DNA from: an uncultured cyanobacterium
GTDB lineage: Bacteria; Cyanobacteriota; Cyanobacteriia; Cyanobacteriales; Nostocaceae
Direction: 5' to 3'
Assembly: GCA_963706595.1 (NCBI GenBank)
Contig: OY970166.1
Coordinates: 1,120,001 to 1,184,000 of the forward strand
Length of the DNA stretch: 64,000 nt
The stretch's first letter is position 1; every line of letters begins with the position of its first letter. The translations under genes were made by a program, and so were the position numbers. The notes below the pieces were generated by a model that worked only from the letters and a program-made list of their open reading frames with translations, did no database searches and was not told the origin of the DNA. Of the stretch, positions 3,089-9,372 are shown in pieces.

Positions 3089-3434
3089 TCAGAGGAGTTT
3101 GGCGATCGCATTATCATCTTGACATCCAATATGGACTCCAACTGCAACAAAATTTCTTTTGAGCAAACTCCTAGTAATGTGCTGTTAGTTAAAGTTTGCC
3201 CATTGTTGATCTAGAGTGTGGGTTTTTAGTTGTTTGAGGGTGCGAGTTAGAAAGAATTTGTTTTCACCAAAGTACAAGTATGTTGGCATGGTAGTACGGC
3301 AATTGTATTGTCGTACATGAGCGTTAGCTATTAGACAAAATCTATGGTATTCCTATAATGTTCGCGTAATTCCTTTACATTAGTCTAAATTTGACATTAT
3401 TTTGAATTTCACGTATTATCACTGTAGATTTACT

Positions 3435-3528
3435 TACAGCTATTTTCAGGTAAATAGACCACGCGGTAGGGGCGCAAGGCCTTGCGCCCCTACTACAGAT
3501 GTGGTTCAAATAGATGAAAACTGCTGTA
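3435..3528. repeat. Miniature inverted-repeat element with a perfect internal 28-bp palindrome
   Basis: Ends TACAGCTATTTTCA...TGAAAACTGCTGTA; core GTAGGGGCGCAAGGCCTTGCGCCCCTAC at 3466-3493. Confidence 0.75.
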
Positions 3529-3578
3529 AATAAAACTTGTTCACCGAAATTTGCATTAGTAAAAATACTGTAGCACGT

Positions 3579-4631
3579 ATGAAATCAAATTTAGTAAAAG
3601 TTTCTGCTTTGATTGCTGGTTTATCAATAGCAACAGCGACAGTTAGCGTAACTAAAGTTGCTGAAGCTGTACCCCAGGATAGCAAGCTACAGTTTGTCCA
3701 AGATACGCAATCTGAGACTCAACCTGAAGTAATAAAAGAACAAATAGGCAAACTGAAGATTGTTAATAATACCCCTTTTATTGCCATAGTGCAACTGTAT
3801 CAGCCTAACGCAGACCAACCTGATAGATATGCTTACATTCCGCCTTGCTACGAAAGAAGTCTTCTCAATACATATAGTAATTTGTGGCAAGTCAGTTTTA
3901 ATAGTCAGGGGAAAAAAGCTATCGGCGATGTTTCGGAGAAGAAAGGAAACACTTTTGTCGTTAGAACATCTAACCTGAATCAGGATACAAATCGGACTTG
4001 CCTATATAAACTCACAGCAGAACCTGTTGTTGAAATACCATGGCAAGAGTTCTTGGCATTAGGGAAGACTGCATTTAAGAATATCGAGAAGTTACCAATT
4101 CCAGATTGGTTAAAGATGGACAATTTAGCAAGAATAAAAGCAAAATTAGACTTGCATTTCTTCAATTCTTTGCCAATAGAAATACAAATTTTAGGACAAC
4201 CTAAAGTTCAGGAAATTCAAGAATTATTATCATCATTATCACCAAATATTAGTGGAGGCAAAAAGACATTTTATAAAAGCAAAAAGGTATTTGATGAATT
4301 GTGGCAAAAGAATGGATTACCTCCTACTACAGATGAAGAGTTCACAAAAATTTCTAATTTTGCCTCTACAATCAATGACCAAAATCAAACAATAATGGCT
4401 ATGTTACCAAAAAATACAGTTTTTAATGGAAACCCTATTCAACAAGCACAAGGTGGTACAGGTGTTACCAACGTGTCTGCTAAGGAAGCATTAAGTTTCG
4501 CGTCAGTTATTTATAAAAACGATTTATTTCGAGTTTCTTCGATAATAGACTTTTCAAAATGGTATGCCTCTTCTGAATCTCAATCAAAACCCGCATCAGG
4601 AGCGTATAATGTAGCGGCATTAAATAATTAA
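3579..4631 (+). CDS. Hypothetical protein with a probable N-terminal signal peptide
   Basis: Long AT-rich ORF. ATG 3579 (MKSNLVKVSALIAGLSIATATVSVTKVAEA) is preferred over TTG 3537. No family recognised. Confidence 0.7.
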   Translation: MKSNLVKVSALIAGLSIATATVSVTKVAEAVPQDSKLQFVQDTQSETQPEVIKEQIGKLKIVNNTPFIAIVQLYQPNADQPDRYAYIPPCYERSLLNTYSNLWQVSFNSQGKKAIGDVSEKKGNTFVVRTSNLNQDTNRTCLYKLTAEPVVEIPWQEFLALGKTAFKNIEKLPIPDWLKMDNLARIKAKLDLHFFNSLPIEIQILGQPKVQEIQELLSSLSPNISGGKKTFYKSKKVFDELWQKNGLPPTTDEEFTKISNFASTINDQNQTIMAMLPKNTVFNGNPIQQAQGGTGVTNVSAKEALSFASVIYKNDLFRVSSIIDFSKWYASSESQSKPASGAYNVAALNN

Positions 4632-4765
4632 TCACTTACTTAATTCAATGCAATAGATATCTCCAAAACTTAGAAGGAGTCCTTGTTTTATAGTATTTCA
4701 TCAGCTTTTTTGAAGATATCTATATTTTTAGTTCCAGGAAAAATAATTAAAAAGGATAGCCAAAC

Positions 4766-5128
4766 ATGACGAGTTATATTCAATTTACAACCGAAGATAA
4801 TGAAACTATTTTAGTTGAGATTGATGCAGCAGAAATTTCTTCTAAAAAAGGAACAACAGTAAAAGTTGGACTAAAAGACAACCTTCAAGGTACTGTTGCA
4901 ATGGCTCAAAGCGTATTCTCAACGGCTATTAAAAGTGCAATTAAATACAATGTTCAAGGCTTGATTGAAGCTGTTCATAGCTTACCAAAACCTCCCAGTG
5001 AAGTTGAGATTACGTTTGGGTTAAAAGTAACAGCGGAAGTTGGGAACGTTGCTGTTGGCAAAATAAATGGCGATACAAATTACGCCGTCAAGTTAGTGTG
5101 GAAGGCAGCTTCAAATGAGTCTAAGTAA
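4766..5128 (+). CDS. Trypco1 (trypsin co-occurring / CU044_2847-like) small protein
   Basis: 120 aa with an N-terminal ILVEID strand and C-terminal PSEVEITFGLKVTAEVGNVAVGKINGDTNYAVKLVW. Overlaps the downstream trypsin-domain gene; AAGGA RBS upstream. Confidence 0.8.
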   Translation: MTSYIQFTTEDNETILVEIDAAEISSKKGTTVKVGLKDNLQGTVAMAQSVFSTAIKSAIKYNVQGLIEAVHSLPKPPSEVEITFGLKVTAEVGNVAVGKINGDTNYAVKLVWKAASNESK

Positions 5129-8100
5129 AACACAAAACGAGCTTCAAGCTGGTATTGTTCGCATTTTAGATTCAGATTCAGATTCAGATACTGCTGGCAC
5201 GGGCTTTATTGTCTCTGATAAATTAGTTGTTACCTGCGCCCATGTAATTAGTCAAGAAGAAACACCACCAGAAACTGTAGATTTAGTTTTCCTCGTAGAT
5301 GATCAGAAAATGTTTACAGCGGTGGTAGTGGCAGAGTATTGGCGTGATCAAGAACACGAAGATTTAGCTATCCTGCGGTTACAAGAACCCTTGCCTGCAA
5401 AAGCTATTCCTTTGAAGTTGGGGACTTCGATACAAATTGAAGGTCATCAATTTAAAGCCTACGGCTTTCCCCAGAGTAAACAAAATAATGGAGTGTGGGG
5501 TAAAGGAGAGATTGTTGGTCAAACTAAACATGAAAAAAATAATTGTGATTTAATTCAATTGAATAGCAATGAAATTACAAAGGGTTTCAGTGGCGGGCCA
5601 GTTTTAGATCAAAACACTAATCGCGTTGTAGGCGTAATAGTAGAGCGGACATCGCCAGATAAAGGTTACGAAGAGATAAGCACCAAAACAGAAAAAATAT
5701 CGTTTCCAGTTTTAACAGGACGAGGAATTGATACCGCGTTTGCTATTCCCACTTCTGTTTTATGCGAAGTTTGCCCCGAATTAAAAATCGCAGATATTTG
5801 TCCCTATGTAGGATTATCTGCATTCACCGAGGCAGATAAAGATTATTTTCATGGACGAAACAAATTAATTACAAATTTAGCCAAGAACTTGCGAGATTAT
5901 CCCTACTTTTTGGCTGTTGTTGGATCTTCTGGTAGTGGGAAGTCCTCAGTTGTTCGGGCAGGATTGTTTGCGGAACTAAAACAAAACTCAATTTTGGGTT
6001 TTGAAAATAGTAGAATTATTCAATTTCGTCCTGGGAATGACCCCAAAGAATCACTGGTAAAGGCTTTACAATCCGAAATTGAAACAAATAACTTTTGGGA
6101 AGAATTTGCAAAATATTTGGACTTACCACACTTACAAAATCGCACTATTATTTTTATCGATCAATTTGAAGAATTATTTGCCCTCTGTTCTCCACCTGTT
6201 CAAAAAGATTTTACAGAAGGATTGTTCAATCAGATAAAAAAATCTTCGTTTATTACCCTGATTATCACAATTCGTGCAGATTTCTATGAACCTTTGCAAA
6301 ATTCATGTTTTGGGGATTGGCTCAAAGGTGGTCAAGTAAATGTAAAATCTATGACTGATGAGGAAGTTAAGTCTGCTATCACCAACCCTGCAAGAAAAGT
6401 AGGATTACAAATACAACCTGGATTAGTAGGGATAATTGCTAGAGATATTAAAAATATAAGGCATTTTTTACCATTATTAGAGTTTACATTAACAGAACTA
6501 TGGAAGAAGGAGCATAAAAATAATTGCTTAACTTATGAAGGTTATTCAAGCATAGGAGGAGTAACAGGATCACTTGTCCAAAAAGCAGAAGAAACTTTTC
6601 ATAAATTGAATCAATTAGAGCGACAATTAACTCGTCAGATTTTTACGCGACTGATTAACTATGGTTCAGCAAATATTCCAGATACCCGACTTCCTCCTTT
6701 GTCTATAGAAGAGCTAGAAGTCAAGAGTAAAGAAAATCAAGACATTCGTAACCTAGTTACAAAGTTTGCAGATGCACGTTTATTAGTTACAAGTTTTGAT
6801 GAGGGGAGTCGTAAAGAAACTGTAGAAATTATTCATGAGGCTTTAATTCTTTACTGGAAACGCTTAGACGATTGGGTGAAAGAAGACCGTGAGAACTTGC
6901 TACTGCGTCAGACTATTGATCAACAAGCTTTAGAATGGGACGATAATAACAGAAACAAAGGAGATTTAGCGTTATCAGAGAAACGCTTAAAATCTGCTGA
7001 GGCTTTATTGGAACAGGAAAACTTTTTAAGTGAAGTTCAGGTTGATTATGTAAAAGCTTGTTTGGATAGGCGCAAGAAAGAGGAAGAACGCCAAGCCCGT
7101 GAAAAGTCTCTGACGCAAGAGAATTTAGAAGAAAAGATTTCTAAACTTGCTGAAGCCGCACGGAATGATTCAAAGGATAACAAAAAGCTGGCTGCGCTTA
7201 CCAAACTAATAAAAGCAGGAAACTTACTTCAAGAATCACCCAATCCTGAAATTTGTGCGGACGTAAAATTGCATTTTCTCATAACTTTTGGGCAAATCTT
7301 TGACGAAATTGCAGAAAAGAATAGTTTTGATGGACATATAAGTTGGATAACCGGAGTAGGCTTCAGTCCAGACAGTCAAACAATTGCTTCTTCTAGTAGT
7401 GATAAAACTGTTAAGCTCTGGAGTTTTGATGGGAATTTGTTGCAAACTTTAGAGGGACATGAAGATGAGGTGATGGATGTTAGTTTCAGCCCTGACGGCG
7501 AAATGATCGCCTCTGTAAGTCAGGATAAAACTATTAGACTTTGGAAAAAATCTACAGACACTAAAATTCAGTGGATACTAGATAAGACTCTAGAAGGTCA
7601 TAGTGGTTGGATTGTTGGTGTTAGTTTCAGTCCAGACAGTCAAATAATTGCTTCTGCTAGTGAAGATAAAACCGTCAAGCTTTGGCACAAAAATGGAAAC
7701 CTGTTACATACTTTTAGTGATCATACAGATGGTGTGATCAATGTGGCGTTTAGTCCAGACGGTAAGCTGATTGCTTCTGCTAGTAAAGACCATACTATTA
7801 AACTTTGGGACTTGGAAAAAAAAGAGCTAAAAAGCAGTTCTGAAGAGCATTGGGCGGAAGTTTCAGCAGTAAGTTTTGGACTTGATAGCAAAACTTTTAT
7901 CTCAAGTGGTTGGGATAAACTTGTCATGTTCTGGAAAATCGACGAAAATGTTCCATCAGTCATACGCAGTGAAGGGCATGAAGCAAAAGTTTACTATGTT
8001 ACGTTCAGTCCAGATGGTGAAACAATCGCCGCAGTTAGCCAAGATAGTCTGATTACTCTCTGGAATAAAAATGGTGATTCTAAAAGAACTTTTAAGGGAC

Positions 8101-9149
8101 ATAAAGACAGCGTTACAAAAGTCAGTTTTAGTGCTGATAGCAAAACTCTTGTTTCTGGTAGTCTTGATGGAACTATAAAAATTTGGGATTGCACTAGGAA
8201 GTTTAATGGACATTCTAGTGAAATTTTAAAGATTGATTTCAGCTTGGATGGTGAGACAATTGCTACAGTCAGTGAAGACGGAACTGTCAAAATTTGGCAT
8301 CGTAATGGTGAACTGCTAAGTAGCTTTCAAGGTAATGATGGCGCGGTTTTTGATATTAAATTTAATCCAGACGGAAAAACTATTGCTACTGCTAGTCAAA
8401 ATAAAGTAAAAATTTGGAATTTTAAAGGCAAGAAGAAAGAAAGCTTTTCAGAATATAACAGCTTTGTTAGTAGCATTAACTTTAATCCAGAAGGAACAGA
8501 GATTGCAATAGGCTATGATGATGGAACGGTAATACTTTGGAATATTGATGATGAAGAAAGTAGAATTTTAACAAACGATACTGAAACAAAGCATATTGAG
8601 AAAGTCTATATGCTCACTTTCAGCCCTCAAGGAACAATGATTGCTACAGCTAGTGCTGACAAGACTGTGAAGCTATGGGATCTTAACGGTGAGTTACTTG
8701 CCCATAGAGAGTATGAAAGTTCTGCTTATTATGTCAGTTTTAGTCACGATGGCAGACTAATTGCTACAGCTAGTATGACAGAAAATTATGCTCACCAAAT
8801 TGAACTTTGGCATCCTAATAATAACTATCAACAAATACTTAAAGGAAATTTTAACAGTCTGGTAATGGGACTCGGTTTTATTGCTGAGGGTAAAATTGTT
8901 GCTGCAATTAGCGATGATCAAACTATAACACTCTGGAATACTGCTGATGGAAAATTGCTACAGACTATTGAGGGAAATCATAATTCCTCCATTAGTGCTG
9001 CTTGTATTTTTAGTTCACAGAATGAAAAAAGTGCGATCACTGTAGCTAATTCTGAAAATAGGATTAGTTTGTGGAGCTTAAGCTTAGATGAATTATTAAG
9101 TAATAGCAACAACCAGATTCAAGATTATCTCTCTCGTGTCTCTCATTAA
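5115..9149 (+). CDS. Trypsin-like serine protease + STAND (nSTAND1-like) NTPase + WD40 repeat protein
   Basis: GTGF...TCAHV, DLAIL and GFSGGPV (complete triad); CPYVGLSAF, Walker A GSSGSGKSS, Walker B IFIDQFEELF, LPLLEFTLTELW, EIIHEALI; roughly 14 GH...FSPD...W WD40 repeats. Confidence 0.92.
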   Translation: MSLSKTQNELQAGIVRILDSDSDSDTAGTGFIVSDKLVVTCAHVISQEETPPETVDLVFLVDDQKMFTAVVVAEYWRDQEHEDLAILRLQEPLPAKAIPLKLGTSIQIEGHQFKAYGFPQSKQNNGVWGKGEIVGQTKHEKNNCDLIQLNSNEITKGFSGGPVLDQNTNRVVGVIVERTSPDKGYEEISTKTEKISFPVLTGRGIDTAFAIPTSVLCEVCPELKIADICPYVGLSAFTEADKDYFHGRNKLITNLAKNLRDYPYFLAVVGSSGSGKSSVVRAGLFAELKQNSILGFENSRIIQFRPGNDPKESLVKALQSEIETNNFWEEFAKYLDLPHLQNRTIIFIDQFEELFALCSPPVQKDFTEGLFNQIKKSSFITLIITIRADFYEPLQNSCFGDWLKGGQVNVKSMTDEEVKSAITNPARKVGLQIQPGLVGIIARDIKNIRHFLPLLEFTLTELWKKEHKNNCLTYEGYSSIGGVTGSLVQKAEETFHKLNQLERQLTRQIFTRLINYGSANIPDTRLPPLSIEELEVKSKENQDIRNLVTKFADARLLVTSFDEGSRKETVEIIHEALILYWKRLDDWVKEDRENLLLRQTIDQQALEWDDNNRNKGDLALSEKRLKSAEALLEQENFLSEVQVDYVKACLDRRKKEEERQAREKSLTQENLEEKISKLAEAARNDSKDNKKLAALTKLIKAGNLLQESPNPEICADVKLHFLITFGQIFDEIAEKNSFDGHISWITGVGFSPDSQTIASSSSDKTVKLWSFDGNLLQTLEGHEDEVMDVSFSPDGEMIASVSQDKTIRLWKKSTDTKIQWILDKTLEGHSGWIVGVSFSPDSQIIASASEDKTVKLWHKNGNLLHTFSDHTDGVINVAFSPDGKLIASASKDHTIKLWDLEKKELKSSSEEHWAEVSAVSFGLDSKTFISSGWDKLVMFWKIDENVPSVIRSEGHEAKVYYVTFSPDGETIAAVSQDSLITLWNKNGDSKRTFKGHKDSVTKVSFSADSKTLVSGSLDGTIKIWDCTRKFNGHSSEILKIDFSLDGETIATVSEDGTVKIWHRNGELLSSFQGNDGAVFDIKFNPDGKTIATASQNKVKIWNFKGKKKESFSEYNSFVSSINFNPEGTEIAIGYDDGTVILWNIDDEESRILTNDTETKHIEKVYMLTFSPQGTMIATASADKTVKLWDLNGELLAHREYESSAYYVSFSHDGRLIATASMTENYAHQIELWHPNNNYQQILKGNFNSLVMGLGFIAEGKIVAAISDDQTITLWNTADGKLLQTIEGNHNSSISAACIFSSQNEKSAITVANSENRISLWSLSLDELLSNSNNQIQDYLSRVSH

Positions 9150-9372
9150 AATCCCCAGTCTTGAAGTACGTGTATCTACCGTATCCGCGTTGCATTTGAT
9201 TGAAGCGTAACAAGTTAATACGTTAATGTTTTACTTACTTATGTTCCGTACACAATCGCTCTCATTATCAGTATAATCCCCCATTCAAAACAGACTCAAC
9301 TGCGCTTTAGCAAGGATTTCCAAATCAATTTTGATAAGCGATCGCCTAAGTGTAAAAATGAATAAAGTCGAG

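Follow-up and report, generated by a model that had tools for sequence, protein, structure and literature searches.

A Trypco1 protein and a trypsin-nSTAND1-WD40 sensor as a probable two-gene self-destruct module of a Nostocaceae genome, seemingly gated by a cut near the N-terminus of the small protein

Described relatives and the proposed mechanism

The module analysed here consists of two genes, one for a small Trypco1 protein and one for a large trypsin-nSTAND1-WD40 protein, within a 64,000-nucleotide stretch (the window) of contig OY970166.1 from an uncultured cyanobacterium of the Nostocaceae. Its closest described relatives come from a handful of studies. Kaur et al. 2020 (PMC7159879) named Trypco1 and Trypco2, of which one or the other, but not both, neighbours a trypsin-like peptidase; the nSTAND1 name comes from Kaur et al. 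2021 (PMC8195603), and a preprint (10.1101/2023.09.22.558884) terms Trypco1 an adapter domain. Evans et al. (bioRxiv 2025, 10.1101/2025.11.14.688446), who equate the name Pepco with Trypco1 plus Trypco2, describe SsPepco as a preformed 9-10-mer barrel, charged in the lumen and hydrophobic on the outside, that is cut after Ile97 by a trypsin-Avs4 protein; the cut form sheds its C-terminal tail and kills cells, and deletion of SsPepco abolished toxicity. The same work reports that trypsin-STAND proteases cut their partner effectors after Ile and the caspase-like LcCaspase after Arg, and that EACC1 is activated by loss of an N-terminal β piece. Lee et al. (Nature 2026, PMC13581612) describe Apaf-1-like WD40 STANDs in cyanobacteria, by bioinformatics only, and list Trypco2 among the effectors used for finding STAND seeds.

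The locus is an intact two-gene self-destruct module of this known kind, in which a protease-carrying sensor accompanies a small, probably pore-forming protein. The two forward-strand open reading frames (ORFs), 4766-5128 (120 amino acids) and 5115-9149 (1344 amino acids), share 14 nt at 5115-5128. Both lie where the original prediction had placed them, and the four families named there (Trypco1, Trypsin_2, nSTAND1, and WD40) were all matched in profile searches. The module belongs to the Trypco1 plus nSTAND1 type and, by analogy, probably works like Pepco-Avs4 and EACC1-Avs12. It resembles SsPepco-SsAvs4 in that the small gene immediately precedes a trypsin-STAND gene, in its active serine, in the aliphatic P1 residue that is expected, and in β-strands with one charged and one hydrophobic face, here as a sequence pattern only. 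SsPepco, however, starts with a helix and loses a C-terminal tail (a charged stretch of ~20 residues after a conserved Ile), whereas the present Trypco1 starts with a β-hairpin and a linker and has no such tail; SsAvs4 senses portal, whereas the sensor here is a WD40 region on nSTAND1. The EACC1-caspase module (KrAvs12) is alike in logic only (N-terminal β piece, one proposed cut, and C-terminal pore-forming fragment): its partner is a caspase, ours is a serine protease, and the 120-residue protein matches neither the EACC1 nor the Trypco2 (PF19631) Pfam family at E ≤ 0.1. The ternary VMAP/iSTAND conflict systems (PMC7159879) share the Pfam family and the trypsin partnership, but here no MoxR or vWA gene adjoins and the partner is an active-type nSTAND1 NTPase with WD40 repeats; the text available on those systems offers no mechanism. 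Finally, the bacterial Apaf-1-like WD40 STANDs (PMC13581612) share the N-terminal protease, the STAND NTPase, the double WD40 propeller, the cyanobacterial host, and the cytoplasmic layout; they are caspase-fronted, with no trigger named in the text available, whereas this protein is a trypsin-fronted nSTAND1 with a dedicated Trypco1, and the likeness is one of layout only.

We suggest that the Trypco1 protein is switched on, as it seems, by a cut near its N-terminus and not by the C-terminal cut of its tested namesake. A cytoplasmic ligand, probably a protein of a phage or other invader, would bind the double WD40 propeller; nucleotide exchange would then, as in established STAND, Avs, and Apaf-1 biology, oligomerise the nSTAND1 core and cluster the N-terminal HtrA-like protease domains. 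Conservation and covariation suggest that the protease would cut the co-translated Trypco1 after Val34, in a disordered linker, and so remove a 34-residue N-terminal β-hairpin lock. The helix-plus-hairpin fragment that is left may, judging from its sequence pattern and from analogy, form a β-barrel, hydrophobic on its outer surface and charged in the lumen, which would permeabilise the membrane and cause the death of that cell. That the locus is a cleavage-gated death module of some kind we regard as highly probable; the full model, with an N-terminal cut, an invader as trigger, an abortive-infection type of output, and horizontal acquisition, we put at roughly 0.55. The original prediction that the protease frees a membrane-active killer from the small protein stands in part: the analogy with the systems of Evans et al. 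and the covariation of linker and protease favour it, but the tested Pepco most likely belongs to the other family. At about even odds, Trypco1 as a whole is a separate and very widespread family of pore-forming death effectors, lumped with Trypco2 as 'Pepco' yet locked from the opposite end, in which an N-terminal β-hairpin propeptide is removed and the linker P1 residue tracks the class of protease (V/I/A for trypsin-like and R/K for caspase-like enzymes), coupled in this case to a cytoplasmic Apaf-1-like double-propeller sensor. The tested 'Pepco' mechanism appears to cover Trypco2 only; Trypco1 is widespread, and with one predicted cut site its mode of activation is now directly testable. 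If the cleaved fragment does kill alone, it would provide a read-out for what bacterial WD40-STAND (Apaf-1-like) sensors detect.

The Trypco1 protein and its linker

The five published residues of SsPepco (L10, E15, L17, I97, and R98) recur together, at an offset of +1 (L11, E16, L18, I98, and R99), in one of 19 Trypco2 proteins (L075, a Pfam Trypco2 match), and their spacing is found in 0 of 275 Trypco1 sequences. Judged from these residues, the Pepco that was tested is most likely a Trypco2, and its mechanism would therefore not transfer as it stands. Actinobacterial Trypco2 proteins encoded beside serine proteases have the helix first, and in most of them the C-terminus consists of a short hydrophobic strand and a charged tail. 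Comparison of the two families by hhalign gave a probability of 0.5%, which is not significant; the Trypco2 alignment is small (19 rows), and the value is still compatible with remote homology. The module lacks two defining features of SsPepco, the C-terminal Ile tail and the spacing of the N-terminal helix. Because its tail after W112 is eight residues long (the family median is also eight) and lacks Ile, and Ile occurs within 12 residues after W112 in just 12 of 150 Trypco1 proteins, the C-terminal Ile-tail switch is missing. Among 75 trypsin-adjacent Trypco1 proteins, ten have I or V at tail positions 4-16, and some members of the family end 1-3 residues past the Trp. We therefore consider it quite unlikely that this is the same defence module with a Trypco1 that works exactly like SsPepco, as a preformed barrel activated by trimming of the C-terminal tail, even though Evans et al. 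place both families under one name and the order of elements past residue 34 (helix, then three strands) is that of the Trypco2 model. A different architecture is seen in cyanobacterial Trypco2 proteins (L047-L067), which carry a helical C-terminal extension instead of a short tail and have non-trypsin neighbours, one with a caspase-type His motif.

In the AlphaFold2 (AF2) model of the Trypco1 protein, strands at residues 3-8 and 14-19 are followed by a helix at 40-71 and then by the C-terminal strands; residues 23-43 form a low-confidence linker with a predicted local distance difference test (pLDDT) score below 50. E18 is conserved in 94% of 150 aligned Trypco1 proteins. Coevolution was analysed in 275 sequences (effective number 203), and four of the five strongest pairs (83-107, 91-99, 77-112, and 87-103; z 7-11) lie on one antiparallel ladder, as do the weaker pairs 79-113, 81-109, and 85-105; we therefore read residues 77-113 as one long hairpin. 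Across the 275 sequences, its even face has a mean hydropathy of +2.04 and its odd face one of -1.51, and E79, E81, K87, E91, K99, D103, K109, and K113 are charged in 59-89%. Foldseek found no match to the model at E ≤ 0.001, and VIA returned nothing clear (best Z 3.5, root-mean-square deviation 6.6, 68 residues aligned). A sequence search of the PDB gave one chance match, the Atlas search gave Trypco1 clusters only, and a collection of EACC1 sequences gave marginal matches only, unlike the family, in 5 of 61 genomes. A predicted complex of the protease domain (residues 1-228) with Trypco1 scored 0.00 in both of two runs (controls not folded) and is used neither way.

The small protein might instead be a non-toxic adaptor, inhibitor, or chaperone of the protease, with the protease killing or signalling by cutting other host or phage proteins. 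A loop matched to a protease could also be the bait loop of an inhibitor; the term adapter domain has been used for Trypco1 (10.1101/2023.09.22.558884), and Evans et al. report a protective caspase that has no effector. The strictly alternating charged and hydrophobic pattern of the 37-residue hairpin, however, is better understood as a barrel stave, and in the related module the loss of SsPepco was also the loss of toxicity. On balance, we think such a role unlikely, and we retain the pore-forming effector.

The position of the proposed cut was examined through the linker, where an otherwise variable segment holds the motif G-x-x-K-[AV]-G-L (G29 79%, K33 65%, A/V34 77%, and G35 84%; n = 150). 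From all loci we took 131 distinct Trypco1 rows, with a trypsin gene downstream in 77, something other in 28, and nothing in 26; seven rows outside 95-150 amino acids were dropped, leaving 75 trypsin-adjacent and 49 non-trypsin rows. Of the 75, 71 have V, I, or A at the V34 column and the other four have a gap there. An alignment-free count finds [VIA][GSA] in the linker window of 69 of them against 37.8 by shuffles, and after dereplication at 60% in 30 of 34 against 18.6. The wider DNA was examined at 14 non-trypsin loci that had been picked by eye for linkers without the aliphatic motif, most of them basic there. None of the 14 has a trypsin motif, and ten have a caspase-fold neighbour (three by Pfam CHAT, two by Pfam Peptidase_C14, four by His/Cys motifs, and one by a weak Cys motif only); the other four, one at a contig end, have no recognised caspase-fold neighbour. 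[RK][GSDE] stands in the linker window of eight of the ten caspase-linked Trypco1 proteins, and also in 28 of the 75 trypsin-adjacent rows. The direction of the difference fits the specificities given by Evans et al., with the Avs trypsin domains cutting after Ile and LcCaspase after Arg, and with a protease that is weakly HtrA2-like in our case. All this is suggestive, not proof, of V34|G35 as the cut site. A further pairing, of P1 with the S1-wall residue of the protease (I with L in 23, V with I/V in 26, and A with V/I in 12 of 68 pairs), was set aside for lineage confounding.

Several observations weigh against the reading that we prefer. At 45% dereplication, [VIA][GSA] is in only modest excess (19 of 23 against 13.0). 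The non-trypsin rows, among which are trypsin-type orphans and contig ends, exceed the shuffles too (32 of 49 against 19.7). The motif pattern was defined after the alignment had been inspected, and the absence of the aliphatic motif from the caspase-linked proteins (0 of 10) is partly by construction because the loci were chosen for it. The Trypco1 tree needs two label changes only, although one of them separates two sister groups, both well supported, whose motifs and proteases are different. The mean pLDDT of the AF2 model (66.9) is moderate, and the N-terminal hairpin coevolves only weakly with the C-terminal strands, the pairs 4-88, 8-83, 18-99, and 1-97 (z 2.9-3.8) being 4 of the top 45, which we estimate to be about chance. 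No trypsin gene adjoins 54 of the 131 Trypco1 rows, contig ends included. In the three closest orthologues, the WD40 region has not diverged beyond the other parts (80-91%, with the protease at 73-78%), although in one more distant relative it has diverged faster (39-46% against 66% for the NTPase). Lastly, a literature search, with subscription journals mostly outside it, returned no experiment on a Trypco1 protein or on the trigger of a WD40-STAND.

The sensor protein, its distribution, and its possible trigger

The intact trypsin triad and Walker A and B sites that had been claimed for the large protein are there, with all five quoted motifs present: of the 114 sequences aligned, every one has H43, D83, K276 of Walker A, and D349 and E352 of Walker B, and all but one have S159. 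The catalytic serine of the protease-STAND is intact and the small gene lies directly upstream, as in SsPepco-type modules. HtrA proteases have an aliphatic preference. The solved chains nearest to the protease domain are those of HtrA2, a weak match (best E 2.9e-4) in which Ile154 occupies the S1 position. For residues 226-738, the search of solved chains gave no match at E ≤ 0.1. The estimate of about 14 WD40 repeats becomes exactly 14 when the region is split at the repeat-end Trp; 11 stretches individually pass the Pfam WD40 model, and a family of DNA repeats (D1) has 11 copies in the region. Most of the aligned homologues (82 of 113) carry a membrane-spanning segment before the sensor, with a best 19-residue hydropathy of at least 1.8 against the value for the connector given in Table 1. 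These membrane-anchored trypsin-nSTAND1-WD40 proteins have the same domain order and are 32-47% identical over the N-terminal 700 residues. Because neither this protein nor its three closest orthologues has such a segment, the sensor should face the cytoplasm. Among defence models, PADLOC gave partial hits only, no named system in NCBIfam or PADLOC was matched full-length, and of the Avs1b model the protease part alone matches (50.2 bits against a cut-off of 1500).

The closest homologues come from Nostoc, Dolichospermum, and Aphanizomenon. Orthologues at 81-86% identity retain full length, and both frames of the present module are intact with all catalytic residues, which makes it very improbable that the locus is decaying or silent cargo without a current function. 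On the side of that alternative, no sequencing run contained at least half of the module's words, only small shares being found, and a relative carries a Trypco1 gene with a frameshift and no partner (L004:6983-7538): this close Trypco1 relative has its frame broken before the last strand, has no protease downstream, and is a decayed copy.

The two genes had been expected to be conserved as a unit, and the neighbourhoods bear this out. Fifteen loci were found by Trypco1 alignment: nine have a trypsin gene directly downstream, two lie at a contig edge, and four have no such partner. Of the nine trypsin partners, five are nSTAND1-WD40 proteins, from Cyanobacteriota, Chloroflexota, Acidobacteriota, and Bacteroidota, and in six of these loci the spacing between the genes runs from -17 to +22 nt. 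Close relatives of this Trypco1 occur in 5 of 388 family genomes, and each of the five adjoins a trypsin-P-loop gene; in two of these partners, which were scanned, the place of the WD40 repeats at the end is taken by pentapeptide repeats or by an unnamed region. Of 8000 candidates scored, 1833 share the protease-nSTAND1 core at E ≤ 1e-30, so the layout is common and in itself unsurprising. The C-terminal ends of these proteins vary, and the sensor end is swapped freely, with pentapeptide, FGE, HEAT, or kinase domains instead. Some Trypco1 is present in 252 of 301 family genomes, and the profile of this Trypco1 clade matches 1608 cluster representatives at E ≤ 0.001.

Trypco1 genes also stand in other company. 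In five loci (L195-L199) they lie head-to-head with caspase-nSTAND1 genes that have WD40 or pentapeptide ends, and so these 'trypsin-co-occurring' proteins also pair with caspase-fold proteases. In six others (L189-L194), from cyanobacteria and Chloroflexota, Trypco1 is first in an operon that continues with a ChlI/MoxR-like AAA ATPase gene, a large unnamed gene, and, in most of these loci, CHAT-type protease genes. The genome that carries the present module has three further full nSTAND1-WD40 genes, with caspase-type N-termini by motif (G000:C1:743057-751952 and 1311482-1316755); two of the three are in tandem and none has a Trypco1 gene alongside.

The module sits in a place of variable content that is flanked by genes for a Na+/H+ antiporter and an AI-2E transporter. 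The cassette was not found in any of ten genomes of the same genus. Its flanks are adjacent in seven of these, with gaps of 106, 393, 734, 817, 970, 5816, and 11139 bp, and are rearranged or on separate contigs in the other three. The 5816-bp gap (G156) holds a single gene (L084:593-5080) for a 1496-residue fusion of PLD, SNF2 helicase, and methyltransferase, which is type IIG restriction-like; the 11139-bp gap (G099; L085, G099:C34:43000-54900) is filled by type III-D CRISPR effector genes together with WYL and CARF-nuclease genes, and no Cas1 or Cas2 ORF was seen in that stretch. The GC content at third codon positions (GC3) of the cargo, 0.26-0.27, is below that of either flank (0.42). Two congeners thus have a restriction-modification gene or type III-D CRISPR genes where the module lies here, and these two informative genomes give independent support for an exchangeable defence slot. 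Phage records contained no match, and plasmid records contained three distant ones.

These data bear on the trigger. Cleavage and pore formation could be right and the signal still come from the host, as a stress or developmental cue for programmed death of filament cells. The three further nSTAND1 proteins of the genome and the presence of Trypco1 in most family genomes suggest a repertoire kept at hand, close orthologues show no hypervariability in the WD40 region, and Evans et al. raise stress sensing for EACC1-DnaK fusions. Against such a signal stand the patchiness of the orthogroup (5 of 388 family genomes and 0 of 10 congeners), its low GC3, the exchange of its place with restriction and CRISPR genes, and the freely exchanged sensor end. 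We judge a host signal improbable, and an invader remains our preferred trigger.

Features of the window and minor observations

The features of the module and of its slot are collected in Table 1.

Table 1. Positions in the window of the module, its domains, and the surrounding slot
Feature	Position	Strand	Basis
Trypco1 gene, 120 amino acids, predicted latent pore-forming effector	4766..5128	+	PF19493 55.6 bits (cut-off 24.6); NCBIfam CU044_2847 (NF041216) 40.4 bits (cut-off 23); sole Trypco1 match of the genome
N-terminal β-hairpin of Trypco1, residues 3-19, proposed removable lock (putative role)	4772..4822	+	AF2 strands; E18 conservation
K33-V34-G35-L36 linker motif, predicted cut after Val34	4862..4873	+	Segment with pLDDT <50; V/I/A column
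Long amphipathic helix, residues 40-71	4883..4978	+	AF2 helix; hydrophobic moment 1.1-1.5
Amphipathic β-hairpin, residues 77-113, proposed barrel stave	4994..5104	+	Coevolving pairs on the i+j~190 ladder; alternating faces
HtrA-like trypsin-fold serine protease domain; His43, Asp83, Ser159; Ile154 at the S1 wall	5115..5798	+	Pfam Trypsin_2, 76.6 bits, residues 28-174
nSTAND1 NTPase; Walker A 5922-5945, Walker B 6150-6179	5802..6959	+	PF20703 345 bits, residues 230-615, model positions 1-378 of 379 covered
Charged connector without membrane-spanning segment	6960..7304	+	No Pfam match; best 19-residue hydropathy 0.93
14 WD40 repeats (probably two 7-bladed propellers), putative cytoplasmic sensor	7305..9077	+	Repeat split, residues 731-1321; Pfam WD40 365 bits
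Variable cargo slot, Na+/H+ antiporter gene to AI-2E transporter gene	3089..9372	.	Flank families; congener gaps; GC3

Upstream of the module lies a 364-residue ORF (3537-4631, forward strand) with a hydrophobic, signal-peptide-like start, a GC3 of 0.27, and no family; its N-terminal half alone has homologues (in 9 of 300 family genomes). It was considered as a part of the module and rejected, since none of seven homologue loci examined (seven of the nine non-self matches) has a Trypco1 or trypsin gene within ~1.5 kb, and it is separate cargo in the same slot. Scans for promoters and terminators gave chance levels (24 sites against 18.1 +/- 4.4). Just 5' of the Trypco1 gene, a 16-nt inverted repeat (4653-4723; 94% complementary, arms 39 nt apart) could be a terminator or an operator. 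On the left side of the cargo, at ~3430-3535, is a ~100-bp dispersed repeat with a GC-rich hairpin, of which copies 80-98% identical are found elsewhere in the genome and in relatives. One congener (G210, L093:4481-10938) has a SocA/Panacea and PemK-like toxin-antitoxin pair and an intein-bearing RtcB gene near the AI-2E gene.

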